From the NCBI GenBank assembly GCA_934486825.1, contig CAKSQF010000003.1, positions 25,771 to 89,770 of the forward strand: a stretch of 64,000 bases of DNA, given 5' to 3'. This document shows positions 1,248-49,175 of this stretch, piece by piece. Numbering within the stretch: position 1 is the first letter of the stretch; each line of letters starts with the position of its first letter. The notes under the pieces were generated by a model. The model had not been told where the DNA came from and did no database searches. It saw nothing but the letters and a program-made list of their open reading frames with translations. A program made the translations under genes and the position numbers. The DNA comes from an uncultured Eubacteriales bacterium. GTDB lineage: Bacteria > Bacillota > Clostridia > Oscillospirales > CAG-272.

Positions 1248-1276
1248 TTGACAACCCGGCTCATGTGTGATAATAT
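1248..1276 (+). promoter_or_regulatory. sigma-A-type promoter of the 13-kb transport operon
   Basis: TTGACA (1248-1253), a 17-nt spacer, then TAATAT (1271-1276), preceded by TGa (extended -10). Confidence 0.55.
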
Positions 1277-1423
1277 ATACTCACGTTTCGGGGAGACGCC
1301 TGCTGCTGTGAGGCGACAACCGTTTCTTCGCAGACAGGCGGTTACCGCAAGAAGCTGCTTTGCGATCGTTTGATCGCTTTTCGGTGCAGAACCATTCCGG
1401 TGCTTCCTTCATTATATTATATC

Positions 1424-1460
1424 GTCGGGGGTCCGGATTGCCCCGACGGCAATTTTTATC
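1424..1460 (+). terminator. terminator-like hairpin inside the operon leader; possible attenuator
   Basis: CGTCGGGG / CCCCGACG 8-bp stem followed by GCAATTTTTA, about 70 nt upstream of the start codon. Two further hairpins flank it: GCGATC/GATCGC+TTTT at about 1361-1382, and a 9-bp stem at about 1467-1491. Confidence 0.35.
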
Positions 1461-1529
1461 ATTCCGGAGCTCTTGCGGTCGCAGATCGGTGCGATCGCGC
1501 GCACATTTATTTTAGGAGGAAAAGTCAAA

Positions 1530-4500
1530 ATGAAACTGACAAAGAAGACAAGACTGCTTGCCGGATTTCTTGCGGCTCTTCTGATTGTGGGACCGGGAAC
1601 GGTTGCCGCATCGGCTGACGAAAACCGCAGCAGGTCTAATGCTTCTTCGGGTGGCAGCTACGAAACGCCGTCGCTTACCGAGCTTCTCAACACAATCAAG
1701 TATTCGGAGTACAGGGCTAAATACGTTGACATTGCACCCGGTTCTGAGTCCGCCGTACTTGCGGGTGATTCTATCGTTTCGTTTACCGAAAAGATCACGA
1801 ATGCGCCGGGTACAAAGGAAGTTGTTCTCGAAAACGGGACAAAGCTGCTTTATCTGCCTTCCGACGGCGTCGTCGGCTGGACGCTTGATATGCCGTCCGC
1901 GGGCATGTACAACATTGTTATAACCTATTATCCCGTTGAGGATATCGATGCCTCGACCGGTAAGACCGATTCGAAGACGACATCGATCGAAAGAACTCTT
2001 TTTGTCAACGAAAAGGTTCCTTTCTACGAAGCGCGTTTTCTTACCATGACAAAATCATGGGAGGATATTGATTCGACCCTGCAGAAGGATGCCGACGGCA
2101 ATCAGATTTACAAAATCGTCGATGCTTCGGGCAAGGTTAAATACCCCTATGTGGATATAAACGGCAACTGCCTTGAACGCGATCTTTCGTCCGGAAAGCT
2201 TGCTTTTGCCAAGACCGGCGATGCCCTTGATGTTGACAAGCTTATATCCGAGGGATATCAGAAGTATCCCGCATATCAGAACGATATCAACGGCAACGAA
2301 ATAAAGTCGGAAAAGCAGCTTGTGCTTTCCTCGACGAAGACCTATTTCAACGAAACGCTCGGAATCAACACGCGCATCGGAGAAAGAAAAACATATACCG
2401 CATGCGATTCGACCGGTTACTTCACCGAGCCGCTTGAGTTCTACTTTGACAAGGGTGAAAACACAATACAGCTTCAGGCACAGCGCGAATCGATGGCTAT
2501 CGAATCGATCAGCATTGTTCCTGTAGAAAAGAAGATGTCCTACACGGATTATCTGAAGCTTCACGAGGATGCCCGGGACTATTCGGGAAGCGCCGTGAAG
2601 ATTCAGGCGGAATATCCGCTTGCAACTTCGGAAAACACGGTTTACCCGACGAATGACAGAACCTCCTACATAACCGAACCGCAGGACGCGTCGCAGCTGC
2701 TTCTCAATGCGATCGGCGGCGACGGCGGTGAAAAGTGGAAGAACATCGGTCAGTGGGTGCGCTGGAACATCGAGGTTCCCGAGACCGGCTGGTATCAGAT
2801 CACGCTTCGCTTCAAGCAGAGCGTGCTTGAAGGAACCTTCTCGTCGAGAACTCTCCGCGTAGCTACCGCGAGCATGCTTGCCGAAGGTAAGCTGCCCGAG
2901 ATTCCGTTTGAGGAAGCTTATTATCTGCAGTTCAACTACAGAGACGACTGGCAGACCGCGGCACTCAACGACGGTAGCACGACCTTCAAGATCTACCTTG
3001 AAAAGGGCGTCAATCAGATAGAGCTTGAGTCGTCGCTCGGCAACATGGCAGAGATACTCCGCCGTGTAAATGCGTCGATGACGACGGTCAATGCGATCTA
3101 TATCAAAATACTGATGATTACCGGTTCGGAACCGGACTCAAACCGTGACTACGGATTTTACCGCATAATGCCGGATGATGTTGACGAGCTTCTCCGTCAG
3201 GCGAGAGAGCTTGAATCGATCTCCGAGGCATTCAGCAAGGTGACCAAATCGACAGGTTCGCATGCAAAGACCCTTGACAAGGTCGCGATGCTCCTTGAGC
3301 GTATGGGCTCGGACGAGAGCAAGATCGCCGGCAACCTTGACAACCTGAAGGAAAACCTCGGTACGCTCGGAACATGGCTTCAGACCTCGACCGAGCAGCC
3401 CCTTGAGATCGACTACATAATAGCCGAAGCTCCCGGAACCGATGTTGGTAAAACCCACAAAGCAAACGACTCCTTCTTACAGGCGTTCTGGTTTGAGATG
3501 ATCCAGTTCGCACGTTCGTTTGTATCCGATTACAACACTCTCGGATCCATGGAGGTTGTAAGCGAAGGAAACACCGTTGAGGTCTGGACAACGCTCGGAC
3601 GCGACCAGGCTCAGATAATCCGAAATCTTATAAATACCGATTTCAATAAGACTCACCCCGGAATTTCGGTTGAGCTTAAGCTTGTCGCCGGGGGCTCGTT
3701 GCTTCCGTCGGTTCTCGCGGGCGTCGGACCCGATGTTTCAATGGGTCACGGCTCGGGTGATGTAATCAACTGGGCAATACGTTCGGCGGTCGTTCCGCTT
3801 AACGATATGGAAGGAATTGAAGAAGTCGTCGGAAAGTTTGACGAAAAAGAGGGTTATCTCGGCGGACACTTTACCGAGAGCGGTGATTTCGTTGACGGAT
3901 ATTTCACGCAGGCGGCAATTATTCCGCTTGAACTGTTCGGCGAATTCGATCCGGACGGTGACGGCAAGGATTTTGAAACAAACGTGACTCTTTACGGACT
4001 TCCCGAAACCCAGTCCTTCTCGATGATGTTCTATCGTGCCGATGTCTTCCAGAACCTCGGCATCAATCCTCCGAAAACATGGGACGAACTTGTTGCGGCT
4101 CTTCCGATTCTCCAGAACAACCACATGGAAATCGCGATGCCCAACTCGCTCGGAGGACTCAACCTGTTCAACTATCAGATGGGCGGAGACCTTTATGCCG
4201 ACAACGGAAAAAGAATAGGTCTTGATACAGACGTCGCTCTTACCGCGTTCGACTACATGTGCTCCTTCTTCTCAAAATATAAATGTCCTTATACCTACAA
4301 CTTCGCCACCAGATTCAGAACCGGCGAGATTCCGATGGGTATCATGGATTACACGACTTACACACAGCTTTCGGTATATGCAACCGAGATCAGAGGTCTG
4401 TGGGAGTTCGTTGCTCTTCCCGGTGTTGTTCAGTACGATGACGCAGGCAATGTTACCGGCGTTAACAACACATCGGTCTCCGGAGTGTCCGCACTCATCA

Positions 4501-4931
4501 TGCTTCATGATGACAAGCGCACGGAGGAGCAGACCGCTCACGCATGGGAATACATGAAATGGTATGTCGGAGCCGAAAACCAGTCGTCTTACGCAAATGA
4601 GCTGACAGCACTTCTCGGCACCGTTTCAAAGCACAATACTGCGAATGTTGAGGCGCTGTCCTCTCTGTCATGGACTACCAGCGAATACAAGAACCTTATG
4701 AGCCAGTTCAACAATCTTTCGGCTGTCCGCGAGTATCCCGGCGGATATATAATCGGACGTTATGTTTCGTTCGCCTTCCTCGCTGTTTACAATAACAACG
4801 CGGTACCGACCGAATCGATACTTGATTATATAGTCGAGATAAACAAGGAAATCAGCAGAAAACGTAAGGAATTCAACATGACCTATTATGAGATAACTCA
4901 GAACAGCAGTTTTGTTGAAGAAGCGGGTTAG
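1530..4931 (+). CDS. extracellular solute-binding protein (CUT1-like sugar ABC SBP) with a roughly 600-aa N-terminal extension
   Basis: AGGAGG (1514-1519) precedes ATG 1530. The signal peptide is MKLTKKTRLLAGFLAALLIVGPGTVAASA. The C-terminal 500-odd aa look like a family-1 SBP (VEVWTTLGRDQAQIIRNLINTDFNKTHPGISVELKLV..., GLPETQSFSMMFYRADVF). The gene sits directly upstream of permease genes. Confidence 0.8.
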   Translation: MKLTKKTRLLAGFLAALLIVGPGTVAASADENRSRSNASSGGSYETPSLTELLNTIKYSEYRAKYVDIAPGSESAVLAGDSIVSFTEKITNAPGTKEVVLENGTKLLYLPSDGVVGWTLDMPSAGMYNIVITYYPVEDIDASTGKTDSKTTSIERTLFVNEKVPFYEARFLTMTKSWEDIDSTLQKDADGNQIYKIVDASGKVKYPYVDINGNCLERDLSSGKLAFAKTGDALDVDKLISEGYQKYPAYQNDINGNEIKSEKQLVLSSTKTYFNETLGINTRIGERKTYTACDSTGYFTEPLEFYFDKGENTIQLQAQRESMAIESISIVPVEKKMSYTDYLKLHEDARDYSGSAVKIQAEYPLATSENTVYPTNDRTSYITEPQDASQLLLNAIGGDGGEKWKNIGQWVRWNIEVPETGWYQITLRFKQSVLEGTFSSRTLRVATASMLAEGKLPEIPFEEAYYLQFNYRDDWQTAALNDGSTTFKIYLEKGVNQIELESSLGNMAEILRRVNASMTTVNAIYIKILMITGSEPDSNRDYGFYRIMPDDVDELLRQARELESISEAFSKVTKSTGSHAKTLDKVAMLLERMGSDESKIAGNLDNLKENLGTLGTWLQTSTEQPLEIDYIIAEAPGTDVGKTHKANDSFLQAFWFEMIQFARSFVSDYNTLGSMEVVSEGNTVEVWTTLGRDQAQIIRNLINTDFNKTHPGISVELKLVAGGSLLPSVLAGVGPDVSMGHGSGDVINWAIRSAVVPLNDMEGIEEVVGKFDEKEGYLGGHFTESGDFVDGYFTQAAIIPLELFGEFDPDGDGKDFETNVTLYGLPETQSFSMMFYRADVFQNLGINPPKTWDELVAALPILQNNHMEIAMPNSLGGLNLFNYQMGGDLYADNGKRIGLDTDVALTAFDYMCSFFSKYKCPYTYNFATRFRTGEIPMGIMDYTTYTQLSVYATEIRGLWEFVALPGVVQYDDAGNVTGVNNTSVSGVSALIMLHDDKRTEEQTAHAWEYMKWYVGAENQSSYANELTALLGTVSKHNTANVEALSSLSWTTSEYKNLMSQFNNLSAVREYPGGYIIGRYVSFAFLAVYNNNAVPTESILDYIVEINKEISRKRKEFNMTYYEITQNSSFVEEAG

Positions 4932-4983
4932 TCCTGTAAAACAATGAAAAATACGAAATTTCAGAATAAGGAGAGGATTGCAG

Positions 4984-5952
4984 GTGTCAGCTAAAACGGC
5001 TAACAATACTCAGGACGTGCAGGTAAAAAAGCCCGTCGCGAGAAAAGATATGACCAAAATGCAGTGGACACTCAAGGAAATGAGACGCAACTGGTTTGCA
5101 TACATAATGCTTGCCCCGTACTATCTTATCTTCCTGACATTCACCATCATTCCCGTCGTTGTATCGCTTGTCCTGAGCTTTACATCATTCAATATGTTGG
5201 AGCCTCCGACATTTATATTCATGCAGAATTACATCAGACTCTTTCTTGACGATGATATCTTCATTCTTGCATGTCAGAACACGCTTATATTTGCGGCGAT
5301 CACGGGTCCCGTATCATATTTGCTTTCATTCCTCGTTGCATGGTTCATCAACGAGCTTTCGCCGAAGATCAGAGCGATCGTTACTCTGATCTTCTATGCG
5401 CCGAACATTGCCGGATCGGTATACATGATCTGGTCGGTGGCATTCTCGTCCGACTCGTACGGATATGTCAACGGTCTGCTTCTTTATCTCGATCTTATCG
5501 ACAAGCCGATAGCTTTCTTCCAGGATGCCGATTACGTCATGCCGCTTTGTATAGTGGTTGCACTCTGGACGTCGCTCGGCACGGCGTTCCTGTCATTCAT
5601 TGCGGGTCTTCAGGTTGTTGACCGTTCGCTTTACGAAGCGGCAGCGGTTGACGGTGTCAAGAACCGCTGGCAGGAGCTTTGGTATGTCACACTGCCGTAC
5701 ATGAAGCCTCAGCTCATGTTCGGTGCGATACTTGCAATAACCGGATCATTCGGTTTCGGCGGTATCGTTGACGCACTTGCCGGTAACCCGTCGGTCGATT
5801 ACTGTGCATGGACGATAACCCATCACCTGAACGACTACGGCGGCGCAAGGTATGAGATCGGTTATGCGTCTGCGATCGCAACGGTGCTCTTTATCATAAT
5901 GATAGGTGCAAACGCGGCGGTCAAGAAAATTCTATCGAAAGTGGGGCAGTAA
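4984..5952 (+). CDS. sugar ABC transporter permease (MalF-type, pair 1)
   Basis: Multi-TM protein with the EAA loop AGLQVVDRSLYEAAAVDGVKNRWQELWYVTLPYMKP. GTG 4984 lies 7 nt after GGAGAGG; the ORF track opens at TTG 4978. Confidence 0.85.
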   Translation: MSAKTANNTQDVQVKKPVARKDMTKMQWTLKEMRRNWFAYIMLAPYYLIFLTFTIIPVVVSLVLSFTSFNMLEPPTFIFMQNYIRLFLDDDIFILACQNTLIFAAITGPVSYLLSFLVAWFINELSPKIRAIVTLIFYAPNIAGSVYMIWSVAFSSDSYGYVNGLLLYLDLIDKPIAFFQDADYVMPLCIVVALWTSLGTAFLSFIAGLQVVDRSLYEAAAVDGVKNRWQELWYVTLPYMKPQLMFGAILAITGSFGFGGIVDALAGNPSVDYCAWTITHHLNDYGGARYEIGYASAIATVLFIIMIGANAAVKKILSKVGQ

Positions 5953-5954
5953 CG

Positions 5955-6836
5955 ATGGCAAGAGTATCGAAATTAAGAACAAGAAAACATACCGTCGTTC
6001 TGAACCGTTCAAAGGGTGGAGACGCCGGAATCGCTTTCTTCCTTATAATTATGGGCGCATTCATGTTCCTGCCCATGCTTTATACGATCATGCAGTCGCT
6101 CAAGCCGCTTGACGAGCTTTGGGTTTTCCCTCCGAAATTCTATGTTACGTCACCGACGCTCAAGAATTTCAAGGACCTGTTCAAGCTGATGAATCAGAAC
6201 TGGGTGCCTTTTTCCAGATACCTCTTCAACACGATTCTTATATCGGTCGGAGGAACCTTCGGTAACCTGTTCCTTTCATCAATGGCGGCATACGTCCTGT
6301 CAAAGATCAAGTTCCCGGGCAGGGACGGACTGTTCCAGCTTATCGTTCTTTCGCTGATGTTCCATCAGACGGTCGGTGCGATAGCGAACTTCATTATAAT
6401 GTCGAGACTTCATTGGGTCGATACGCTCTGGGCGATAATCATACCCGCATGGGGATCGACGCTCGGACTATATCTTATGAAACAGTTCATGGAGTCGTCG
6501 GTTTCGGACGCGGTTCTTGAATCCGCGCGCCTTGACGGTGCAAGCGAACTTCGTACCTTCTGGACGATAGCGATGCCGATGGTCAAACCGGCATGGCTGA
6601 CGCTTATAGTTTACTCCTTCAAAGATCTGTGGAACACTGGCTCCACGATCTATGTTTACTCCGAACAGCTCAAGACCTTCAGCTATGCGATAGGACAGAT
6701 CCTGTCGGGCGGTATCGTGCGTTCGGGTGCGGGAGCAGCCTCAACCGTCGTTATGATGATCGTGCCGATTGCGGTGTTTGTCATATCGCAGTCGAACATT
6801 ATCGAGACGATGGCATCGTCCGGTATGAAGGATTAA
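5955..6836 (+). CDS. carbohydrate ABC transporter permease (MalG-type, pair 1)
   Basis: EAA loop ESARLDGASELRTFWTIAMPMVKPAW, six predicted TM segments, and a 3-nt gap to the upstream permease. Confidence 0.85.
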   Translation: MARVSKLRTRKHTVVLNRSKGGDAGIAFFLIIMGAFMFLPMLYTIMQSLKPLDELWVFPPKFYVTSPTLKNFKDLFKLMNQNWVPFSRYLFNTILISVGGTFGNLFLSSMAAYVLSKIKFPGRDGLFQLIVLSLMFHQTVGAIANFIIMSRLHWVDTLWAIIIPAWGSTLGLYLMKQFMESSVSDAVLESARLDGASELRTFWTIAMPMVKPAWLTLIVYSFKDLWNTGSTIYVYSEQLKTFSYAIGQILSGGIVRSGAGAASTVVMMIVPIAVFVISQSNIIETMASSGMKD

Positions 6837-6844
6837 GGGGGTAT

Positions 6845-9022
6845 ATGATGAAGAGATTTACAAAAACATTTGCTGTTTTTTGCGCAATACTGATGATTGC
6901 TCTCGGCAGTGTATCTTCGTTTGCCGCTTCATACAGCACATATACCTATTCGATCGACGGCGAACAGCTGCCGTCACCGGATGCCTACACTCCCGAAAAG
7001 GTTGTCGATTCAAAGAAGATCGGTCTTGAAAAGGCGCTCAATGCGCCGACGGCGATCGAGGTCGATAATGACGGCAATGTTTATATTGCCGACCCCAACA
7101 ACAACAGAATCGTTGTTCTCAACAGGTATTATGCATACAAGTATGAAATAAGCACCTTTGTCAACAGCGACGGTGTTGCGGACTCGCTCAGCGGGGCAGA
7201 GGGACTTTTCATATGGGAAGGCTATACGATCGAGAATGAGGAATACACAAAAGAAAAGCTCATTTACGTAGCCGATACACTGAACCGCAGAATTGTGGTG
7301 TTTGATGCCGAAGGCAATTACGTGCGCACGATAAGAGAGCCTGCCGGAGAGGTTATCAACGCAAGCGAAATCTACAGACCGGTAGCTCTTGCGGTTGACT
7401 CTTCGGGAAGAATATATGTCGTTTCGTCAATGACATATCAGGGAATCATCTCACTTACGAACGAAGGTGAATTTGCCGGATACATAGGAGCTCAGAAGGT
7501 TACCTACAACGCACTCCAGCTCATCTGGAGAAAATTCCAGAGTGCCGAGCAGCTGGCAAAGCAGGATAAGAACATTTCGACCGAATACAACAACATCGCA
7601 ATAGACGATGAGGGCTTTGTTTACGTAACGAACGGTGCGATCGAGGAATCGACGCTTTCAAGTGCGATCCGCTCGGGCAACAAGAATTATGCTCCGGTAA
7701 AGAAGCTCAATACATCGGGAACCGACATAATGAGAAGAAACGGTTTCTTCATGCCCGCAGGTGAGATAACATTCAGATCCTATGCCCGCGCATCCGAAGG
7801 AAACACCGTTCCTTACGGTCCGTCGCACATCGTTGACGTGGCACTCGGACCGGCAAACACATGGTCGATAATCGATGATAAGAGATCAAAGATCTACACA
7901 TACGACGACAACGGCAATCTTCTGTTCGCATTCGGCGACATGGGTACCCAGATGGGTAACATGCAGAAGGTATGCTCAATCACCTATCAGGGTGAAAAAA
8001 TGATCGTGCTCGATAAGCAGACATCTTCCTTTACGATTTATTCGAGAACCGATTACGGCGATCTGCTTATAACAGCGATCGAAAACAACAACAAGCGTAT
8101 GTATTCGCGTGCGCTTGACGACTGGAACGAAATACTCAAGAGCAACAACAACTTCGATGCAGCGTACATAGGAATAGGAAAGGCATACTACCGTCTCGGA
8201 CAGTGGGAAACCGCAATGGACTATTTCGAGCGCGCATACGATACCAAAAATTACTCGGATGCATTCGGCAAATGGCGTAAGGAATGGGTAGAAAAGTACA
8301 TCTGGGTCATTCCGATTGTGGTAATTGTCTTCTGCGTTGCGGTTGCCGAATTCTTCAAGTTCGCAAACAGAGTAAACAGAAAAGCAACTGTTTCGGGCAA
8401 AAAGAAGACCTTCTGGGAAGAAGTGCTGTACGCATTCCACCTCATATTCCATCCGTTTGACGGATTCTGGGATCTGAAGCATGAAAAGCGAGGCTCTGTA
8501 CGCGCGGCATTCTTTATTCTTGCGCTTGCAGTCGCATCCTTTGCTTACCAGAGCATCGGACGTGCATACATTTTCAACCCGCGCGGCGGATATACAAGTA
8601 TAATCGGGCAGCTGTCCGGACTTCTTGTGCCGATAATCCTCGGTTCTACGGCAAACTGGTGTCTGACAACACTGTTTGACGGTGAAGGAAGCTTCAAGGA
8701 TATTTTTGTTGCGATCTGCTATTGTCTTACGCCGATAGTAATGTTTGTTCCGCTTGCAACACTTCTCACACATATTGTCACGAATTCGGAGGCTGGTTTT
8801 GTGAACCTTCTTCTCGGACTCTGCTATGTCTGGGTGGGAATGCTCTTGTTCTTCGGAACTATGGTTACACATGATTACTCTATGGGCAAGAACGTAATTA
8901 CCCTTTTGGGTACCGCGATATGTGCCTGCGTTATCATGTTCATCATGGTACTGTTCTCGAGTCTGCTCATGAAGATGGTATCCTTCGTTTCGCAGATTAT
9001 TACCGAAGTAACATACGGATAA
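6845..9022 (+). CDS. secreted NHL-repeat beta-propeller / TPR / Yip1-type multi-pass membrane fusion protein
   Basis: Signal peptide MMKRFTKTFAVFCAILMIALGSVSSFAASYS. NHL-like repeats include YIADPNNNRIVVLN, YVADTLNRRIVVFD, GRIYVVSS and GFVYVTNG. A TPR-like segment reads AAYIGIGKAYYRLGQWETAMDYFERAY. The C-terminal roughly 220 aa contain 5-6 TM helices typical of Yip1-domain proteins. Confidence 0.7.
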   Translation: MMKRFTKTFAVFCAILMIALGSVSSFAASYSTYTYSIDGEQLPSPDAYTPEKVVDSKKIGLEKALNAPTAIEVDNDGNVYIADPNNNRIVVLNRYYAYKYEISTFVNSDGVADSLSGAEGLFIWEGYTIENEEYTKEKLIYVADTLNRRIVVFDAEGNYVRTIREPAGEVINASEIYRPVALAVDSSGRIYVVSSMTYQGIISLTNEGEFAGYIGAQKVTYNALQLIWRKFQSAEQLAKQDKNISTEYNNIAIDDEGFVYVTNGAIEESTLSSAIRSGNKNYAPVKKLNTSGTDIMRRNGFFMPAGEITFRSYARASEGNTVPYGPSHIVDVALGPANTWSIIDDKRSKIYTYDDNGNLLFAFGDMGTQMGNMQKVCSITYQGEKMIVLDKQTSSFTIYSRTDYGDLLITAIENNNKRMYSRALDDWNEILKSNNNFDAAYIGIGKAYYRLGQWETAMDYFERAYDTKNYSDAFGKWRKEWVEKYIWVIPIVVIVFCVAVAEFFKFANRVNRKATVSGKKKTFWEEVLYAFHLIFHPFDGFWDLKHEKRGSVRAAFFILALAVASFAYQSIGRAYIFNPRGGYTSIIGQLSGLLVPIILGSTANWCLTTLFDGEGSFKDIFVAICYCLTPIVMFVPLATLLTHIVTNSEAGFVNLLLGLCYVWVGMLLFFGTMVTHDYSMGKNVITLLGTAICACVIMFIMVLFSSLLMKMVSFVSQIITEVTYG

Positions 9023-9043
9023 AAGGAAGGAGTACGGATATAA

Positions 9044-12000
9044 ATGAAAACAAGTAATTTCAGCTTCAATGCGAAAGTACTTTCACTGCTTCTTGTTATT
9101 CTGATGATCATGGGCACGCTGTCTTCGCTCTTTATCCTTCCTGTGTACGCACAGGAGGGTGACGGAACGGGGGGGACGACCGGCGGAGATAATACCGAGG
9201 TTGTCGATCCCGATGAGGAGGAAATCAAAAATCCCACCATCGAGGAAGCTATTGCCGCATATCTTACGAAAGAATACGAAACAAGGGAAGAAAAGCTTGC
9301 GGTTATGACCGAAAAGCTTACAAAAGGAGACTTCAAGTTCTTCTGCGACCCGTATACGGGGGAGATTGCCGTTCAGAATACGGTAACCGGTCAGATACTC
9401 TTCTCTAATCCCTATGACGTGGCAACAGTAAAAACAGAAACGGTCAAAGAGCGACTTCTTTCACAGGTTGTTGTGTCCTTCAAGGATCTTGCCAACAACG
9501 GACAGGTCCGTGAGCTCAACAGCTACAAGGATGCCGCCGCAAACGGTCAGGTGACCGTAAAGAATATCAAAAACGGTATCCGCGTGGAGTATACGCTCGG
9601 TAAGGAAGCTTCCAAGAAGCTTATGCCTTACTGGATCGAAGCATCAAGATTCGAAAAGATGATTCTTTCCAACATAACCGTTGAGTATGACCTCGGAAAG
9701 GCGATCTCGTATTATGACCGTAAGGACGTAAACGATTCGTCACTGCCCGCAGCGACGATCCGTGAGATCAACAATGCCTACGCCTGCACAAAATCAACAT
9801 ATCAGAAACTCAATGTCACACCGATGTACGACCGTACCGAGGTTGACGAAAACGGTGAAACGGTTTATGTTGCCGAATATACCGACCATACCGGTAAGCT
9901 TGTAAGCCACAGATACAAAATGTCCGACAAGCTGGTTATATACACGGTAGAGCCGAGTGTTACTCTTTCCGAGAAGATGTCCAACACAATGGAAGGCTAC
10001 ACAAAGATGTATGCCCCCGACTACAACTATGAGGAAAGAGACTACGATATTGAAATCACCGGATATGTCGGAGACGAAGCCGGAAATGCAACCTTCCGTC
10101 TTGCTCTTGAATATACGGTGGACGATACCGGATTCAGCGTCAGTCTTCCCGCAAACGGAATCCGTTATGACGCGGATAAATACCGCCTGAATTACATAAC
10201 GCTGCTGCCTTATCTCGGAGCATCCTCCGACGAGTATCCCGGATATACCTTTATGCCGGACGGCTCGGGTGCAATAATCAGAAATGAGGATATCACCGCA
10301 GACGGCAGATCGTATACGGTTTCCGGTAAGGTTTACGGACCCGATTACGCATATCACAAGCTTACCTATAACGGCAAGTCGGAAATAATCCGCATGCCCG
10401 TTTTCGGTAATATCGAAAGTCTTGCCGATCCGATCGAAGTCGGACGCAAGATTGTGCCCGCACTTGATATTTCCGGTAAGCCGGCATACAACCCGGTAAC
10501 CGGAGAGCCGATACCTCAGTACTGGCTGGTCGATGAAGAGGAAGTAACCACCGTTATCGACGAGTACGGCGATATCGTGAAATATGTGCTCAAGGATGAG
10601 CCTGACGTTGAAGTCGAGAGAGTAAAGACGCAGTCAAACGTAATCTATTACAGACTTGACGAAAACGGAAAACGTGTTTATCTTACAGAGCCGATCTACG
10701 AATACGAATATCATCCGCAGGGCTTCTTCGCAATAATCGAAGAGGGCGAGTCGCTTTGCGAGATCACATCGAACCACGGAGGTAATATAAGCCACAAGTA
10801 CAGTTCGATATATGCGTCGGTCTATCCGGAAAGCACAGACAGCTACAACCTTGCCGATTCGATATCTGTCGGACAGGATGCCGAATGGACTGTCGTTTCG
10901 GAGAGAAAATATACCGGTCTGTTCAAGATCCGCTATATAATGCTTTCTTCTGCCGAGGGCGCTCAGTATGAGGCAAGCTACATGGGAATGGCGAACGCAT
11001 ACAGAGATTATCTTGACAAGAACGGCGTTATCTCGCTTATCGATGATGCCGCAAAGGATATTCCGCTCTATATTGAGTCGTTCGGTATGATAAAGACCGA
11101 GGATGTCGTGATGACAATTCCGGTCATGGTTGATACACCCCTTACGACATTCGGCGATATACAGACAATGTATAAGACGCTTGCCGAGAAGGGAATCGGA
11201 AATATCAATTTCCGCCTGACCGGCTTCAATAAGGAGGGCACCGGTTACCAGTTTGCTCCGTCGGTTGTTAAATTTGAAAAGGTGCTCGGCGGAAACAAGG
11301 GTTACGGCGAACTTCTCAAGGATGCCGAGAACAACAACTACGGTGTTTTCCCCGAATTTGACTTTGCCAATGTTAACTCGTCGGCATGGTTTGACGGATT
11401 CAGCTTCAAGAATCAGACTGTACGTACGATAGATGACCGTTACTCATATAAACGTGAATATGATGCAACATATCAGAACTTCACGTATATGGGATCGGTT
11501 GCGGTGTCACCCTGTGCATTCAGCGATCTTTTTGCAAAATTTGCAAGAAAGATGGATAAGCTCGGTGTAAACGGAATATCGGTATCGACGCTCGGTTCCG
11601 ACCTGAATACCGATTTCGACGAGAAAGAGCCGTACAACCGCGAGGATGACAAGGCATTTACGGCAGAGCTTCTCGGAAATATGGCTGAAAAATACAAGAA
11701 CATAATGATCGACGGCGGAAATGCTTATACATGGAAATATGTAAAGCATATCCTGAATGTATCGCTTGACAGCTCGCGTTATCTGAGAGCAAGCCAGTCG
11801 ATACCGTTTATGGGTCTTGTTCTTCACGGATCGGTATACCTTGCAGGCAAGCCCACGAACATGCAGGGCAATGTAAGATACGAGATGCTGAAGATAATCG
11901 AAAACGGCGCATCGCCCTACTACACGCTCTCCTATCAGAACACGCAGGAGCTTAAGGAATACAGCAATCTGACAAAGTATTATTCGGTCGATTTCAACAT

Positions 12001-12532
12001 CTGGCTGAAGGATCTTGTCGAAACCTATAATGTTATCAATTCGGCTCTTTGCGATGTCCAGGAATCCCGTATAAAGAATCATACCTTTATAAGCGGTACG
12101 AGAGTGTTCGGCGAGAAGGACCGCGATCAGTACGAGGCAGAGCTTGCCGTGGTTCTTGCGAAATATCTTGAAATGTACAATGCAGACCTCATGAAGAAGA
12201 TAAAGGACAGCTACAGAAGCGGTCTTATCACACTTCCCGAAGGATATGACTTCAAGAAGAACGAAGAAGGTAAGATAATCCCGCCCGAGGGCTTTGATCT
12301 GGAGGCATTCGAAGAGGATTATATAACCTTTGAAAAATACAATAAAGAAACCGCAGCGACAAGTATTGACGATTACTCGATAGTATACGAAGAGTACGAC
12401 AACGGAATATCGTTTGTCCTCAATTTCAATGATTTCAACGTATCGGTTGAGATCGGCGGAAAGACCTATACCGTTTCGGCAACAGGTTTCGTAAAGATCG
12501 ATGCAAGCGGCAATGTCGTCGCAAGTAACTGA
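9044..12532 (+). CDS. large secreted or membrane-anchored protein, DUF5696-like; putative uncharacterised glycoside-hydrolase-like
   Basis: N-terminal hydrophobic anchor LSLLLVILMIMGTLSSLFILPVYA, then a Gly/acidic linker. The ORF is 1162 aa and operonic with sugar permeases. Segments such as GISVSTLGSDLNTDF and SIPFMGLVLHGSVYLAG resemble (beta/alpha)8 glycosidase strands. The DUF5696 assignment is from memory of similar annotated proteins and is not verified. Confidence 0.5.
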   Translation: MKTSNFSFNAKVLSLLLVILMIMGTLSSLFILPVYAQEGDGTGGTTGGDNTEVVDPDEEEIKNPTIEEAIAAYLTKEYETREEKLAVMTEKLTKGDFKFFCDPYTGEIAVQNTVTGQILFSNPYDVATVKTETVKERLLSQVVVSFKDLANNGQVRELNSYKDAAANGQVTVKNIKNGIRVEYTLGKEASKKLMPYWIEASRFEKMILSNITVEYDLGKAISYYDRKDVNDSSLPAATIREINNAYACTKSTYQKLNVTPMYDRTEVDENGETVYVAEYTDHTGKLVSHRYKMSDKLVIYTVEPSVTLSEKMSNTMEGYTKMYAPDYNYEERDYDIEITGYVGDEAGNATFRLALEYTVDDTGFSVSLPANGIRYDADKYRLNYITLLPYLGASSDEYPGYTFMPDGSGAIIRNEDITADGRSYTVSGKVYGPDYAYHKLTYNGKSEIIRMPVFGNIESLADPIEVGRKIVPALDISGKPAYNPVTGEPIPQYWLVDEEEVTTVIDEYGDIVKYVLKDEPDVEVERVKTQSNVIYYRLDENGKRVYLTEPIYEYEYHPQGFFAIIEEGESLCEITSNHGGNISHKYSSIYASVYPESTDSYNLADSISVGQDAEWTVVSERKYTGLFKIRYIMLSSAEGAQYEASYMGMANAYRDYLDKNGVISLIDDAAKDIPLYIESFGMIKTEDVVMTIPVMVDTPLTTFGDIQTMYKTLAEKGIGNINFRLTGFNKEGTGYQFAPSVVKFEKVLGGNKGYGELLKDAENNNYGVFPEFDFANVNSSAWFDGFSFKNQTVRTIDDRYSYKREYDATYQNFTYMGSVAVSPCAFSDLFAKFARKMDKLGVNGISVSTLGSDLNTDFDEKEPYNREDDKAFTAELLGNMAEKYKNIMIDGGNAYTWKYVKHILNVSLDSSRYLRASQSIPFMGLVLHGSVYLAGKPTNMQGNVRYEMLKIIENGASPYYTLSYQNTQELKEYSNLTKYYSVDFNIWLKDLVETYNVINSALCDVQESRIKNHTFISGTRVFGEKDRDQYEAELAVVLAKYLEMYNADLMKKIKDSYRSGLITLPEGYDFKKNEEGKIIPPEGFDLEAFEEDYITFEKYNKETAATSIDDYSIVYEEYDNGISFVLNFNDFNVSVEIGGKTYTVSATGFVKIDASGNVVASN

Positions 12533-12548
12533 AAAGGAGGGGAATAAA

Positions 12549-13529
12549 ATGAATAACGCACAGGCGGCAGTTAAGCAAAAAGCGCCTCAAAAGACGAAAA
12601 AGCGCAAGATCGTTTCGCTTGATAAGAAGAAGGCGCGCGCAGGTTGGTTTTTTGTTGCACCCTTCCTTATCGGATTTGTGCTGATCTACATTCCGATAAT
12701 CTTCAACTCAATACAGTCAAGCTTCTTCTCGGTAAAGCAGGGTCAGATATCCGAATTTGTGGGATTTGATAACTATGCATACGTGCTCTTTACCAATCCC
12801 GACTTCGTAACGACCCTGACATCGGGAATACGTCAGCTCGTCATTGATATTCCCGCGATAGTAATATTTTCACTGTTCATGGCAGTGCTTCTGAACCAGA
12901 AAATGTTCGGCAGAGCGATATTCCGTGCGATCTTCTTCGTGCCGGTTATTCTGTCAACGGGACTTATTGCGGATATCGATGCTTCCAATGTTATGAACCA
13001 GTATATGAGCGGCACCGACAGTACCGATACGTCGGCGAACATCACAAATGCTTCATCGGCATCCGACATTATTTCAATGGCAGATGTGGCGTTCCTGTTC
13101 GAGAGCATGAAGATCGGTACCGGACTTGTAAAGTATGTCGTACAGCTTGTAAATGACGTGTACAACATAATAAACCGTTCGGGAGTTCAGATGCTGATAT
13201 TCCTTGCGGGACTTCAGTCAATCTCTCCGGCAATATACGAATCATGTTCGATCGACGGCGCGACCGCATGGGAAACCTTCTGGAAGATAACATTCCCGAT
13301 GATAAGCCCGATGATACTTGTCAACACGATATATACCGTAATTGACTCGTTTACATCGTCGGACAGTTCGGTCATGAAATTTATCCTGAATTTCTATTCG
13401 ACCGGCGGCGCACAGTCGCGCGTACAGGCAACCGCGATGGGTTGGATATACTTCCTGATCGTTATCGCGATTATCGCGGCGGTTTCGGGAATACTGTCGG
13501 CGTATATCTTCTACCAGAGAAGAGATTAA
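12549..13529 (+). CDS. sugar ABC transporter permease (MalF-type, pair 2)
   Basis: AGGAGG precedes ATG 12549. EAA loop AGLQSISPAIYESCSIDGATAWETFWKITFPM. There is an inserted Ser/Thr-rich extracytoplasmic loop. Confidence 0.85.
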   Translation: MNNAQAAVKQKAPQKTKKRKIVSLDKKKARAGWFFVAPFLIGFVLIYIPIIFNSIQSSFFSVKQGQISEFVGFDNYAYVLFTNPDFVTTLTSGIRQLVIDIPAIVIFSLFMAVLLNQKMFGRAIFRAIFFVPVILSTGLIADIDASNVMNQYMSGTDSTDTSANITNASSASDIISMADVAFLFESMKIGTGLVKYVVQLVNDVYNIINRSGVQMLIFLAGLQSISPAIYESCSIDGATAWETFWKITFPMISPMILVNTIYTVIDSFTSSDSSVMKFILNFYSTGGAQSRVQATAMGWIYFLIVIAIIAAVSGILSAYIFYQRRD

Positions 13530-13540
13530 GGAGGTCGGCT

Positions 13541-14566
13541 ATGAATGCACAGCAAACACAGACAAAGATAAAGAAGGAATCAAAGAACAAGATCCGCGTT
13601 GATTTTGACAGAACCTCACGTTGGACCCGCTTCAAGATCAAATATCTTTCGGCGAGCTTCCTCGGACAGGTGATCTTCAAACTCTTCAGACTTGTACTGC
13701 TTCTCGGAATATCCTATGTCATACTTTTCCCGTTTTTCTCCAAAATAGCGTCCTCTTTCATGAGTCCGAGTGACTTCGTTGACGTAACGGTCAAGTTGAT
13801 ACCGAAGAATCCGACGCTCAACACCTACAAGCAGATAATCAGAGAAAACAACTACTTTGAAGCACTCTTCAATACAGCGGTACTTTCTCTGCTCTGTGCC
13901 GTAATACAGACATTTATCTGCTGCATCATCGGCTACGGCTTCGGCAAATACCGTTTCAAGGGCAGTAAGCTGCTTTTCGCATGCGTCCTGCTTACGATGA
14001 TAGTTCCGCACAAGATACTTCAGTTCTCGCTCTTCAATGAGTTCAGATATTTTGACATATACGGAATAATCAAAGCCATAACCGGCAAGACAATCAAGCT
14101 CACCGGTACTTATTGGCCGCTTGCGATCCTTTCGTTTACCGGTCTTGCGTTCAAGAACGGTCTGTACATCTATATGATGAGACAGTTCTTCAGAGGCGTG
14201 CCGGACGAACTTGAGGAATCCGCATATATCGACGGATCGGGTGTGTTCAGAACGTTTATACAGATCATTATCCCGCTTTCGATCCCGATGATGATTACAA
14301 TATTCCTCTTCTCGTTCAGCTGGCAGTGGACAGATAACTTCTATACCACGTTGCTTATTCCGGGTACGGCAAAATCGATCAAGCTGCTCCCCTCGATTAT
14401 AGAGGTACCGAAAACGCTTGATACCAATTACGCCGGAGGAAACCTTTATACCTCGGCGATCAGAAACACCTGCGGACTTCTTATTATAGCTCCGCTGATT
14501 CTGATATATATGTTCTGCCAGAGATATCTTATACAGGGTATCGAACGCTCGGGTATTACCGGCTAA
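13541..14566 (+). CDS. carbohydrate ABC transporter permease (MalG-type, pair 2)
   Basis: AGGAGG precedes ATG 13541. EAA loop EESAYIDGSGVFRTFIQIIIPLSIPMM. Multi-TM protein. Confidence 0.85.
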   Translation: MNAQQTQTKIKKESKNKIRVDFDRTSRWTRFKIKYLSASFLGQVIFKLFRLVLLLGISYVILFPFFSKIASSFMSPSDFVDVTVKLIPKNPTLNTYKQIIRENNYFEALFNTAVLSLLCAVIQTFICCIIGYGFGKYRFKGSKLLFACVLLTMIVPHKILQFSLFNEFRYFDIYGIIKAITGKTIKLTGTYWPLAILSFTGLAFKNGLYIYMMRQFFRGVPDELEESAYIDGSGVFRTFIQIIIPLSIPMMITIFLFSFSWQWTDNFYTTLLIPGTAKSIKLLPSIIEVPKTLDTNYAGGNLYTSAIRNTCGLLIIAPLILIYMFCQRYLIQGIERSGITG

Positions 14567-14632
14567 AAAACGAAAAATGCGTTTTCCGTTTCTGCCAAAT
14601 CGCATTTGCGGAAAAACGCCGACAAAAACAAA

Positions 14633-14664
14633 ACGTCCGCGGACATTTGTCCGCGGACGTTTTG
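14633..14664. terminator. bidirectional rho-independent terminator
   Basis: Perfect 12-bp stem ACGTCCGCGGAC / GTCCGCGGACGT with loop ATTT, flanked by an A-run and a T-run. Confidence 0.8.
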
Positions 14665-14696: not shown

Positions 14697-14729
14697 GCTC
14701 CCGCACAACCTTTGCAGCCGTGCGGGAGT
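14697..14729 (-). terminator. hairpin terminator downstream of metA
   Basis: GCTCCCGCAC ... GTGCGGGAGT stem, flanked by an A/T-rich tract on the minus-strand 3' side. Confidence 0.5.
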
Positions 14730-18564: not shown

Positions 18565-20502
18565 ATGTTGAAAACCGATAATCTCGCGCTTTATCTGTTC
18601 CATCAGGGAACAAATTATCATGCACATGACTATATGGGCGTTCACAGGGCGGATCACGGCTACTGCTTCAGAACATGGGCGCCGTCGGCGGAACGCGTTC
18701 TTCTGGTCGGCGATTTCAACGGCTGGCAGGGACAACCCATGACCAGGATATCCGACATGGGCGTCTGGGAGATAACGGTTGATGCCGATGACCTTGAGGG
18801 GCAGAAATACAAATATGTTGTATGCTCCGCATCAGGCGAGCATTACAAGGCGGATCCGTACGCCGCATACGGCGAAACGCTCAAGGCAACCGCGTCGATC
18901 GTTTATACAAACGAAAAATACAAATGGACAGACGCGCGCTGGCTTACAAAGCGGCGCATGATTGCTGCGGGTGACGAGTTCTATGCCGCTCCCATGAATA
19001 TTTACGAAATGCATCTCGGTTCGTGGCGCACGCGCGACGGCAAGACGACAAAGGACGGCGAAAACTATCTGAACTATCGTGAGATTGCCGATCAGCTTGT
19101 GCCTTATGTCAAAAAAATGGGATATACGCATGTCGAGCTGATGCCGATAGGAGAGTACCCGTTTGACGGTTCGTGGGGATATCAGGTCTGCTCCTACTTT
19201 GCGCCGACCGCGCGTTTCGGGACGCCGGAGGATTTCAGATATTTCGTGAACACTCTTCATACAAACGGAATCGGCGTGATTCTCGATTGGGTTCCCGCAC
19301 ATTTTCCCAAAGACGAACACGGTCTTTGCAATTTTGACGGCGGTCCGCTTTACGAATATCAGGGTTGGGACCGTATGGAGCATACCGAGTGGGGAACACG
19401 ATGCTTTGATGTCGGCAGAAACGAGGTGGAGTGTTTCCTTATATCATCGGCGATGAGCTGGCTTGAACGGTATCATATCGACGGTCTGCGCGTCGATGCA
19501 GTGGCATCAATGCTCTATCTTGATTATGCGAGAAAGCCCGGCGAATGGGTGCCGAACATTTACGGTGAAAACAAGAACCTTGAAGCAATTGCCTTTTTCA
19601 AAAAGCTGAACACGGCGCTTTTTGCGGCGCATCCGGATATATTGATGATAGCCGAGGAATCGACGTCGTGGGCATCGATAACAAAGCCGGTTTCGGAAGG
19701 CGGGCTGGGCTTCAATTTCAAATGGAACATGGGCTGGGCGAACGATATGTACGATTATGTGCAGACCGACCCCTATTTCAGAAGATATCATCACAAGGAT
19801 CTGAACTTCTCGCTTTCGTATGCATTCAGCGAAAATTATATACTTCCGGTGTCGCACGACGAGGTCGTGCACGGCAAAAAGTCGCTCATAGACAAGATGT
19901 GGGGGACATATCATCAGAAATTCGCCGGAATGAGAATATTCGAAGTCTGGCAGATGACCCATCCCGGAAAAAAGCTCACCTTCATGGGATGCGAGTACGG
20001 GCAGTTCCGCGAATGGGATTACGAAAACCAGCTTGAATGGTTCATGCTGGATTTCGAAAAACACAGACAGCTTCACGACTTTACGGCAACGCTCAACAAC
20101 CTTTATCTCAAAAGGCGTGAGCTGTGGGAGCGGGATTTCTCATGGTCCGGCTTCGACTGGATCTACGCCGACCGCGACGCGGACAATCTTATAGCCTTCA
20201 GACGCATGGACAGAGCGGGGCATGAGCTGGTTGTTATTATAAATTTCTCGGCTGTCGGTTATAAAGGCTACGGCTTCCCGGTGAAGGGCAAGGCATACCG
20301 CGTCCTGCTTTCGACCGACGACGAGGAATTCGGCGGCAGCGGAATGAAATACCCCGGAATCATCGCCCGGAACGATATGGATATGATTACCCTCGACCTT
20401 GCACCTCTGTCGGCGGTAATTCTCGAACCGATAAACGAGCGTACCGTGCAGAAAAAGAAAAGGACAAAAAAACAGACGGCGCAGACAGACGGCAAACAGT
20501 GA
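18565..20502 (+). CDS. glgB: 1,4-alpha-glucan branching enzyme
   Basis: GH13 branching-enzyme motifs: IGVILDWVPAHF, GLRVDAVASMLY, IAEESTSW and HDEVVHGK. The ORF is 645 aa. Confidence 0.92.
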   Translation: MLKTDNLALYLFHQGTNYHAHDYMGVHRADHGYCFRTWAPSAERVLLVGDFNGWQGQPMTRISDMGVWEITVDADDLEGQKYKYVVCSASGEHYKADPYAAYGETLKATASIVYTNEKYKWTDARWLTKRRMIAAGDEFYAAPMNIYEMHLGSWRTRDGKTTKDGENYLNYREIADQLVPYVKKMGYTHVELMPIGEYPFDGSWGYQVCSYFAPTARFGTPEDFRYFVNTLHTNGIGVILDWVPAHFPKDEHGLCNFDGGPLYEYQGWDRMEHTEWGTRCFDVGRNEVECFLISSAMSWLERYHIDGLRVDAVASMLYLDYARKPGEWVPNIYGENKNLEAIAFFKKLNTALFAAHPDILMIAEESTSWASITKPVSEGGLGFNFKWNMGWANDMYDYVQTDPYFRRYHHKDLNFSLSYAFSENYILPVSHDEVVHGKKSLIDKMWGTYHQKFAGMRIFEVWQMTHPGKKLTFMGCEYGQFREWDYENQLEWFMLDFEKHRQLHDFTATLNNLYLKRRELWERDFSWSGFDWIYADRDADNLIAFRRMDRAGHELVVIINFSAVGYKGYGFPVKGKAYRVLLSTDDEEFGGSGMKYPGIIARNDMDMITLDLAPLSAVILEPINERTVQKKKRTKKQTAQTDGKQ

Positions 20503-20568
20503 AAACGAAGCTCATATAAAAGGCAGATATTTATATGCAGATATTTATATAAAGGAGACTATGGTAGT

Positions 20569-21777: not shown

Positions 21778-21790
21778 GGGAGGGAGAAAG

Positions 21791-22927: not shown

Positions 22928-22953
22928 ACAATTATTTGAAAGAAGGTAATTAT

Positions 22954-24378: not shown

Positions 24379-24432
24379 CGGCATTGCCGCAGGACGGTCG
24401 GGACAAACGAAAAATAAGTATTCCCGCAATAC

Positions 24433-24468
24433 AAGCAATGCCGCTTATGCGGCATTGCTTTGCTTGTT
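24433..24468 (+). terminator. rho-independent terminator or processing hairpin between glgA and glgP
   Basis: 12-bp stem AAGCAATGCCGC / GCGGCATTGCTT with loop TTAT, followed by TGCTTGTT. Confidence 0.65.
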
Positions 24469-24570
24469 GATACTGCTTAAGTACAAAAGGAAGATTGCTT
24501 TGGCGACATTCTGCATATAATAATAAAGAGCGGATGCATCGCGCAAAGACAAGTCGGAAAGGAATTGAAA

Positions 24571-27081: not shown

Positions 27082-27105
27082 TCGGAAGCTCAGGACGAGG
27101 TTTAT

Positions 27106-35559: not shown

Positions 35560-35713
35560 CGGCACGATTCCTTTCGTATACTGTTGTCCGTGGCAAACGG
35601 TACCTATATGTATTATAACATCCTGCCGTGCCGATGTCAACAGAGCATGCCGCGATAGTCAAAAAAGCCAAAAAATTTTTTCTGATATTTATCAAAATTG
35701 TGGCATAAGCCTA

Positions 35714-48979: not shown

Positions 48980-49175
48980 AGTTATTCCGACCTCTTTTTT
49001 ATATTGCAGTGGCTTTCTCACAGGGGAAAGTCGCTTTTTTTACAGTTTTATATACAGTGTCAATATTTTAACACTGATTGCAAAATTGCTCTTCCTTTTG
49101 CCTGCAAAATAATTATAATACAACATTGTTGAAATGTCAACAGTGTTCAATAAAAAAGAGAACAGGAGGAACTGT

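Follow-up and report, generated by a model that had tools for sequence, protein, structure and literature searches.

A conserved seven-gene cassette of gut Clostridia that may couple extracellular glycan cleavage to uptake through two ABC sugar translocators

Among described systems, the closest importers are the CUT1-type ATP-binding cassette (ABC) sugar importers of Firmicutes (MalEFG/MsmEFG, with a shared MsmK/MsmX ATPase); in Firmicutes the ATPase of a sugar importer is commonly shared and unlinked. The closest enzymes by fold belong to the glycoside hydrolase (GH) families GH129 and GH101, of which NagBb is the alpha-N-acetylgalactosaminidase of Bifidobacterium bifidum, ZgGH129 is a 3,6-anhydro-D-galactosidase, and the GH101 members are endo-alpha-N-acetylgalactosaminidases. 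A Gram-positive polysaccharide utilisation locus (PUL), in a definition reportedly due to Sheridan et al. in 2016, has a degrading enzyme, an ABC importer and a transcriptional regulator in one locus. The Yip1-family protein YknW modulates the assembly of the YknXYZ ABC transporter (PMC4887032). Here a 64-kb stretch of DNA from an uncultured Eubacteriales bacterium (contig CAKSQF010000003.1; the whole stretch of 64,000 nucleotides is called the window) was analyzed for a cassette at 1248-14664, in which seven co-directional + strand genes were found, with no rival long open reading frames (ORFs) of known family. We lean towards reading the cassette as a vertically conserved surface module of gut Clostridia, serving glycan capture, extracellular cleavage and import via two CUT1-like ABC translocators. 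The genes, g1 to g7, are as follows.

1530-4931, + strand, g1, giant solute-binding protein (SBP), 1133 aa
4978-5952, + strand, g2, MalF/UgpA-like permease of pair 1, 324 aa
5955-6836, + strand, g3, MalG/UgpE-like permease of pair 1, 293 aa
6845-9022, + strand, g4, NHL-propeller/TPR/Yip1 membrane protein, 725 aa
9044-12532, + strand, g5, DUF5696 protein, 1162 aa
12549-13529, + strand, g6, MalF/UgpA-like permease of pair 2, 326 aa
13541-14566, + strand, g7, MalG/UgpE-like permease of pair 2, 341 aa

Each ORF was started at the first initiation codon downstream of a Shine-Dalgarno site, and all seven genes have such a site. The gaps from g1 to g7 were, in order, 46, 2, 8, 21, 16 and 11 nt, and a motif scan of the operon interior found no strong terminator or promoter. 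The start of g2 was ambiguous: TTG 4978 lies just 4 nt past AAGGAG, the spacing is better for GTG 4984, and in the identical locus L091 the gene is called from GTG 4984 (322 aa). GTG 4984 is the more likely start, and the g1-g2 gap is then 52 nt. The seven co-directional, tightly packed ORFs described in an earlier reading of this DNA (the sequence-only reading) were borne out, with gaps of 2-46 nt, or up to 52 nt with the later g2 start.

Like the CUT1 importers, the cassette has an SBP_bac_1-type domain, MalF/MalG-like permeases with EAA loops and an ATPase outside the locus; unlike them, it has two permease pairs in one operon with two large surface proteins between, and its SBP is without a lipobox and reaches 1133 aa through ~600 extra N-terminal residues (two beta-sandwiches and a four-helix bundle). 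With GH129 and GH101, g5 shares a beta-sandwich followed by a (beta/alpha)8 barrel and weak profile homology over the beta1-alpha2 region; a low-stringency alignment pairs a conserved acid of g5 with the nucleophile of GH129, and an aromatic residue with the stacking Trp. It differs from both families in its ~10% identity, in having no Pfam match to them and no assigned acid/base equivalent, in a conserved 300-residue N-terminal domain without a PDB relative, in a membrane anchor, in the variable charged C-terminal extension of its relatives (up to ~1400 residues), and in lying always inside an ABC importer operon in the loci examined. As with YknW of Bacillus YknWXYZ, g4 is a Yip1-domain membrane protein encoded with an ABC transporter (PMC4887032), a likeness that here is one of gene linkage, in all loci examined. 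The partners of g4, however, are type-I importers, and YknWXYZ is an exporter of MacB type that includes a membrane fusion protein; g4 also has a 480-residue extracellular NHL propeller and TPR before its Yip1 domain. The cassette resembles a Gram-positive PUL in encoding a surface-anchored glycosidase-like protein together with an ABC sugar importer. It departs from one in that the lineage of the window has no regulator or intracellular glycosidases, the candidate enzyme falls in no CAZy family, and the cassette is kept across families rather than strain-variable, among mostly housekeeping flanks. No regulator was found in or adjoining the operon except a small divergent helix-turn-helix (HTH) gene of close relatives, and the locus therefore falls outside the PUL definition. 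We read the cassette as working like a CUT1 sugar-importer locus with an extracellular glycosidase, and as differing from one in the doubled translocator, an SBP with a carbohydrate-binding module (CBM) and stalk, the propeller-Yip1 protein and an enzyme candidate of an uncharacterised family.

Conservation of the cassette was examined by tblastn and by context look-ups of related loci. The seven genes were found in the same order in L002, L005, L006, L007, L008 and L009, which come from metagenome-assembled genomes (MAGs) of Lachnospiraceae, Eubacteriales, Candidatus Avispirillum and Oscillospiraceae, with g5 identity down to 24%. The complete seven-gene order was also present in L010, L094, L096 and L097, giving ten other complete loci, and four more (L001, L003, L004 and L095) were cut by contig ends, yet collinear. 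No exception to the gene order was found among the loci examined, and since the order recurs in every one of them, the grouping is beyond chance. When flanking ORFs were compared all against all, matches occurred between close relatives alone (the HTH gene of the window and L002; alaS of L005 and L006). Within 10 kb, the sole sugar-related neighbours (GH95, GH43-like, GH127-like and ROK genes) were scattered, each in one or two loci. A conserved neighbour supplying the ATPase, a regulator or catabolic enzymes was rejected, the flanking matches being trivial. That no cytoplasmic catabolic enzyme is linked to the operon, as claimed before, held true, the flanks being mostly housekeeping genes.

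The candidate for the cleaving step is g5. It matched PF18952 (DUF5696) at 440 bits (cut-off 25.6, E 1e-131), and the same family was carried by 741 of the 741 close g5 homologues scored. The sequence-only reading had called the protein DUF5696-like; the relation was right and the wording too weak, as g5 is a true member. An AlphaFold2 (AF2) model on 65 homologues (predicted local distance difference test, pLDDT, 85.9; predicted template-modelling score, pTM, 0.75) was divided as follows, by residue.

8-29, N-terminal transmembrane anchor
30-63, disordered linker
64-360, conserved extra domain
about 364-640, GH129-like beta-sandwich
about 670-1020, (beta/alpha)8 barrel, then a long helix
1107-1161, C-terminal beta-sandwich

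In a Foldseek search of the PDB, the model ranked ZgGH129 (5opq) first (E 8e-26, target template-modelling (TM) score 0.70) and matched NagBb (5wzr) at E 7e-19 (target TM 0.71). GH101 structures followed at E about 1e-11 to 1e-10 (target TM 0.22-0.31), and then GH31, GH36 and GH66. The N-terminal beta-sandwich and (beta/alpha)8 barrel by which the GH129 fold is recognised are both present in the model; g5 is no member of GH101, to which the fold likeness is weaker than to GH129 and there is no Pfam match. Against NCBIfam, g5 matched no enzyme family, phmmer found no match in the PDB, and in a profile search of the PDB the best match was NagBb, non-significant at E 0.67. Sequence-level membership of GH129, or of any other GH family, was rejected on these results and the negative Pfam search. 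The earlier statement that the operon has no recognisable enzyme thus stands at the level of sequence profiles and fails at the level of fold, where g5 is a glycosidase-like (beta/alpha)8 protein. Its place outside the characterised GH families, as then supposed, was upheld: no GH129 or GH101 Pfam match appeared at E<=10, and the literature searched held no paper on DUF5696, PF18952 or this gene arrangement.

For profile-profile comparison, the NagBb sequence was recovered from gut metagenome contigs, and hhalign aligned residues 629-765 of g5 with 220-359 of NagBb (79% probability, E 1.6e-5). The catalytic residues of NagBb are presumably D435 (nucleophile) and E478 (acid/base). W398 of NagBb is named in PMC8106489. 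Allowing for a shift of one position, all three residues agree with the recovered sequence. When the alignment was extended at low stringency, D435 corresponded to D853 of g5 (Asp/Glu in 65/65 members), the stacking W398 corresponded to the invariant Y806, and E478 fell beside G892/N893. Acids that are invariant or nearly so follow the barrel strands of g5 at D773, D797, D853, D857, E867 and D868, with D857 invariant. Judged by its model, g5 reads as a distant structural relative of GH129/GH101 belonging to neither family, and is probably catalytic.

The extra N-terminal domain of g5 (62-362) gave no PDB match in a profile search. The DUF5696 family is very large, with 5507 representatives at 50% clustering (E<=1e-3) and 3063 at E<=1e-30. 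Many relatives of g5 have 1800-2545 aa, the added C-terminal 800-1400 residues being rich in E, K and A, and no Pfam domain was found in the C-terminal extensions of the 2100-2500-aa relatives; one source names a long DUF5696 protein ‘membrane protein involved in colicin uptake’. The long extension may be a charged spacer through the wall.

For the capture step, g1 was compared with Pfam and modelled with AF2 (pLDDT 85, pTM 0.80). SBP_bac_1/SBP_bac_8 matches were confined to residues 696-1028, and the match to PF01547 (82.5 bits, cut-off 26, residues 696-1018) places the protein in the SBP_bac_1 class. The parts of the protein, by residue, are these.

N-terminal part, hydrophobic signal/anchor segment without a lipobox Cys (AF2 model and sequence)
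about 70-335, beta-sandwich 1 (AF2 model)
about 355-502, CBM35/6-like beta-sandwich 2 (AF2 model and profile)
504-621, four-helix bundle (AF2 model)
626-1115, CUT1-type SBP fold (AF2 model)

The best Foldseek matches of g1 were oligosaccharide SBPs (target TM 0.69-0.78), with which the relatives at sequence level agree. A profile of the N-terminal region matched CBM35/CBM6 modules in the PDB at E 2.8e-6 to 0.07. Against the Pfam CBM model g1 itself scored 20 bits, under the cut-off of 28; among members of its family, CBM_35 was matched in 8/12 (best E 3.8e-6) and Golvesin_C in 9/12. In all 108 of 108 homologues the N-terminal region was fused to an SBP, with lengths of 934-1185 aa save for three truncated entries. 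On model and profile together, g1 reads as a CBM35/6-like module and helical stalk ahead of an oligosaccharide-type SBP.

All four permeases (g2, g3, g6 and g7) have BPD_transp_1, each over the PF00528 cut-off. The best NCBIfam matches were of the UgpA/MalF type for g2 and g6, UgpE/MalG for g3 and UgpE/GlcU/MalG for g7, and the EAA loops read EAAAVDG in g2, ESARLDG in g3, ESCSIDG in g6 and ESAYIDG in g7. BPD_transp_1, the NCBIfam polarity and the four motifs together bear out the earlier call of two MalF-like plus MalG-like pairs with EAA loops. The pairs are merely about 24-26% identical to each other (g6 against g2 ~24%) and are similarly conserved, at 58-68% identity to L007. No MalK/MsmK-type Walker A or signature motif was found anywhere in the 64-kb window, in agreement with the absence of an ATPase from the operon noted in the sequence-only reading, and no CUT1-type ATPase lay within 10 kb of the cassette in the other loci. 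The Walker A sites of ABC ATPases in the window, at 49281, 50210, 54737 and 56454, are of exporter/ABC-2 type. They lie in two unrelated export systems, one at 49134-52826 (+ strand; two ABC-2-type ATPases and an ABC2_membrane protein) and one at 54198-57579 (- strand; a pair of fused exporter genes).

A variant of the cassette was found in L093 (14720-22865) and L098 (6616-22837), in the order giant SBP, F1, G1, propeller/TPR/transmembrane protein, Yip1 protein, DUF5696, F2, G2 and second SBP. The g4-equivalent gene is there split exactly past the first transmembrane helix, into a propeller/TPR/transmembrane protein of 484-517 aa and a separate Yip1 protein of 211-212 aa that begins at a conserved HP.DGF motif. 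The DUF5696 protein is shorter (782-812 aa), and the second SBP of L098 is an ordinary lipoprotein of 504 aa with a lipobox. In L098, the giant SBP gene adjoins a two-component system of YesM/YesN type, made up of a histidine kinase (PF06580) and, directly abutting, a Response_reg/AraC regulator; in Firmicutes, inducible ABC loci for sugars typically have such a system next to an SBP gene. No homologue of the second SBP or of the two-component system was present in the window or the seven-gene loci. Upstream, the two variant loci share DUF624 and SipL genes.

Because L093 and L098 place a second SBP after pair 2, the two permease pairs are probably two importers, not one four-subunit translocator. 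Of the doubled translocator with one SBP that had been proposed, the two pairs and the single SBP of this lineage remain, and the doubling itself is to be read as two importers. The count of one SBP was confirmed for the seven-gene form, the second SBP of the variants being without a homologue in the window. Since the L098 variant carries a sugar-type two-component system, the system as a whole is suggested to belong among regulated carbohydrate uptake. The absence of a regulator, likewise claimed before, is therefore true of the window lineage and not of L098.

The remaining large protein, g4, matched NHL, TPR and Yip1 in Pfam. It scored 62.1 bits against PF04893 (Yip1; cut-off 28.6, residues 532-700), which makes it a Yip1 member, and 35.4 bits against PF01436 (NHL; cut-off 20), consistent with an NHL propeller. 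By residue it comprises the following.

about 40-410, extracellular NHL beta-propeller, after a signal peptide (Pfam and profile)
415-470, TPR (Pfam and profile)
486-504, transmembrane helix (hydropathy)
536-551 (window 8450-8500), K/R-rich loop with invariant HPFDGFWDLKHEKRGS (hydropathy and alignment)
554-702, five-transmembrane Yip1 domain (hydropathy)

In the PDB, a profile from 39 homologues matched TPR proteins and, among NHL propellers, the PknD sensor (E 3e-16), TRIM71 and Pizza designs. The extracellular sensor domain of PknD was the closest natural-protein match of the propeller; for the membrane part the same search gave no PDB match. The predicted topology places the protein outside up to residue 485, with six transmembrane helices in total. 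Three polar motifs are invariant, namely HPFDGFWDLKHEKRGS (536-551), NWCLTTLFxGEGSFKD (604-619; 8654-8701) and THDYSxGKN (675-683; 8867-8893), and all three lie on predicted cytoplasmic loops. Conserved residues of the motifs include His, Asp and Glu, which, beyond a docking surface, would also suit a catalytic or ion-binding site. With 46% identity to L007, against 36% for g1 and 36% for g5, g4 is the best-kept non-permease protein. As L093 and L098 carry its two modules as separate genes, g4 is, on the sequence, apparently a fusion of a propeller/TPR/transmembrane module and a Yip1 module.

The transcription signals of the cassette are listed here.

1248-1276, + strand, sigma-70-type promoter with TG-extended -10 (TTGACA-17-TAATAT), score 10/12 with TG
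1284-1529, + strand, 5' leader of ~246 nt, with a hairpin and T-run at 1362-1377 and a possible anti-Shine-Dalgarno block near 1400-1415
14629-14664, no strand assigned, G+C-rich hairpin of 16 bp with a 12-bp perfect G+C core, z -5.9 against shuffles

Promoter-like sites were not enriched in the region over shuffles (21 found against 21.8 expected). A TTGAC[AT]-17-TAT[CT]AT promoter with TG was present 211-358 nt 5' of the SBP gene in L002, L005, L006, L008, L010 and L096, and L007 has a TG-extended promoter of the same pattern 75 nt 5' of the SBP gene; in L002 the -35 and the TG-extended -10 form the best-conserved block, the rest of the spacer having diverged. The site at 1248-1276 was accepted as the operon promoter because this promoter type recurs in seven other loci, the score within the window alone being no proof, and the near-consensus promoter of the sequence-only reading was in this way sustained.

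The leader folds with z -2.6 against shuffles, and leader lengths of 170-320 nt recur in seven loci. The hairpin at 1362-1377 is GCGATCgtttGATCGC followed by TTTT. In the L002 leader (2150-2413) a hairpin of other stem sequence stands at the same aligned position, GCGGtttttgCCGC followed by TTTT, and the conserved blocks AAGAAGCTGCTT and GCAGAACCATTnCGnTGCTT flank the hairpins of both leaders. In the predicted fold, the CUUCCUUC block pairs with the Shine-Dalgarno site of g1. Rfam gave no match over the whole window at the gathering threshold, nor over 850-1600 at E<=1, and a riboswitch or known RNA element was rejected for want of a family match. Terminator-like hairpins were found in 3/7 leaders against 0.94 expected (p about 0.07, not significant), so that an attenuator was not established as a general feature of the leaders. 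The leader of the window itself may, from its predicted fold, be an attenuator or translational switch.

At the other end, the hairpin at 14629-14664 has an A-tract upstream and a T-tract downstream; its T-run on the + strand is short (TTTTG), and the one on the - strand longer. The hairpin looks bidirectional because its T-run is better on the - strand than on the + strand. From these features it is a probable bidirectional terminator closing the operon. It may end both the g7 transcript and that of the homoserine O-acyltransferase gene, which runs convergently and has a further hairpin of its own at 14698-14728. The terminator with a 12-bp stem of the sequence-only reading keeps its perfect core, in a stem that extends to 16 bp, and is better read as bidirectional.

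On the reading that we lean towards, the parts would act in the following way. A single N-terminal hydrophobic segment was found in each of g1 and g5, and the large domains of both are predicted to be extracellular. The giant SBP would be held at the membrane by its uncleaved or non-lipidated N-terminal anchor, its CBM35/6-like module and other beta-sandwich on the four-helix stalk would hold the polymer, and its SBP domain would pass oligosaccharide to permease pair 1 (g2/g3). Cleavage would be the task of the membrane-anchored, extracellular g5, which from its fold and conservation may be a GH129/GH101-like glycosidase or transglycosylase with D853 or D857 as the likely nucleophile. g4 is most likely, by analogy, a coupling subunit that would tie the enzyme and the binding protein to the translocators as YknW does for YknXYZ; alternatively, it could be the receptor for pair 2. 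For the second importer (g6/g7), the SBP would be encoded elsewhere in this lineage, or its role taken by g1 or g4. Energy would come, as is the practice in Firmicutes, from an ATPase of the MsmK/MsmX type that both translocators share and whose gene lies beyond the 64-kb window, and all seven genes would be transcribed from the one strong promoter via the long structured leader. As a first guess the substrate is an alpha-linked sugar, since the nearest folds act on the alpha-linked N-acetylgalactosamine of mucin-type O-glycans and on 3,6-anhydro-D-galactose; more distant fold relatives of g5 act on alpha-glucosides and alpha-galactosides. The machine for capture, processing and uptake of a glycan that the sequence-only reading proposed survives in outline (a CBM35/6-like SBP, a GH129/GH101-like g5 and a conserved unit), and its premises on the enzyme, the doubled translocator and the regulator were corrected. 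A bolder form of the proposal, in which the Yip1-anchored propeller docks the GH129-like enzyme and the CBM-bearing SBP on two translocators as a single integrated machine, products passing directly to the transporter, and in which DUF5696 is a new GH family of new specificity, is in our estimate unlikely.

Several results weigh against the capture, cleavage and import proposal. Among eight g5-family members, Pfam at E<=10 gave DUF5696 alone and no GH129/GH101. The high-confidence span of the hhalign alignment between g5 and GH129 covers 129 columns and ends before the catalytic strands. D890, the acid nearest to the E478 site, is S/N in 6/65 members, including a 72%-identical orthologue, and was for this reason rejected as a conserved acid/base. 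For a nutrient-foraging locus it is unusual to have mostly housekeeping flanks and no linked catabolic enzyme, regulator or ATPase; there is one SBP for two permease pairs in this lineage; the role of g4 is drawn by analogy with YknW; and all named sources of homologues are MAGs or metagenomes.

The main rival to a foraging role is recycling of the cell's own glycans, a housekeeping turnover in which g5 would trim a wall polysaccharide, S-layer glycan or capsule, the importers would recycle the fragments, and g4 would sense or scaffold. We judge it improbable, though several points favour it: ten complete loci in several Clostridia families whose flanks are not conserved and consist mainly of housekeeping genes (alaS, metA, POR, dnaB, glycogen and pyrimidine genes), a lineage without a regulator or linked catabolic enzymes, a promoter of strong, constitutive type, and the very large size of the family (5507 representatives at 50% clustering). 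It sits poorly with the L098 variant, where a YesM/YesN-type two-component system typical of inducible sugar uptake is in control, with a CBM35/6-like module on the SBP that suits capture of free polymer, with a long structured leader that hints at regulation, and with the lack of any link between the locus and wall-synthesis genes. That g5 is instead a catalytically dead, glycosidase-derived binding protein, with g5 or the g4 propeller as the receptor replacing the missing SBP of pair 2, seems less probable again. The position near the GH129 acid/base is not conserved, the second SBP is missing in the seven-gene form and present in the variant, the variants have a shorter DUF5696 protein (782-812 aa), and just 16 nt separate g5 from pair 2, which follows it directly; all of this fits a receptor. 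However, acids and polar residues are kept at the C-terminal ends of the barrel strands (D857, D853, E867, D868, D773, D797, H928 and N893), and DUF5696 and a second SBP coexist in L093 and L098, hence no simple substitution of one for the other. ABC importers are also not known to have TIM-barrel receptors.

A slighter chance still is given to g4 as a transmembrane sensor or regulator. Its PknD-like propeller would then detect glycan, and through its conserved Yip1 face it would either gate the ATPase or the translocators or pass a signal to a regulator encoded elsewhere. Its propeller is nearest the PknD sensor domain among natural proteins, its invariant polar motifs lie on predicted cytoplasmic loops, it is the best-conserved non-permease protein of the cassette, and the lineage is missing a dedicated regulator; but it has no kinase, HTH or other output domain, and the separability of its propeller and Yip1 halves as genes equally fits a modular scaffold. 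The sole studied bacterial Yip1 protein works, moreover, in complex assembly (PMC4887032). Least probable by far is a chance adjacency of two unrelated importers and two unrelated surface proteins. The low mutual identity of the permease pairs (about 24-26%) and the two SBPs of the variant loci would agree with it, whereas the identical order in every locus examined, at g5 identity down to 24% and with flanks differing between distant loci, and gaps of 2-46 nt in an interior without a strong terminator or promoter would not; it was rejected on synteny.

Elsewhere in the 64-kb window, the flanks hold a small divergent HTH protein, methionine-pathway genes, DUF4349, a glycogen cluster, GH92 and pyrimidine genes, which are unrelated to the operon. 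The remaining features of note are these.

170-565, - strand, 131-aa HTH_23/sigma-70 region-4-like protein, divergent and upstream of the operon
18565-29025, + strand, glycogen cluster: GlgB (CBM48 and alpha-amylase), GlgC-like nucleotidyl transferase, ORF 21791-22927, GlgA (Glyco_transf_5), glycogen phosphorylase and GH13 alpha-amylase
32299-35640, - strand, 1113-aa GH92 protein (alpha-mannosidase family) with ~240 extra N-terminal residues, isolated among unrelated genes

L002 (72% identity) and L091/L092 have the HTH gene at the corresponding position, and more distant loci do not. The glycogen cluster has no linkage to the cassette in other loci.

ABC sugar importers are not known to have three features of the cassette: the fusion of the SBP to carbohydrate-binding modules borne by a helical stalk, the presence of two translocators in a single operon, and the joining of a Yip1 protein to an extracellular propeller. 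The fold link of DUF5696 to GH129/GH101 provides a hypothesis that the bench can test, and DUF5696 may prove to be a new CAZy family, carried by gut Clostridia that are abundant and for the most part uncultured. If the proposed coupling role of g4 is true, it would widen the scant knowledge of bacterial Yip1 proteins as partners of ABC transporters, and a single integrated machine, if true, would be a Gram-positive functional analogue of Sus-type machines without a described counterpart. If the module does capture, cleave and import glycans as proposed, it would illustrate the way in which Gram-positive bacteria of the gut link the cleavage of glycans outside the cell to their uptake.

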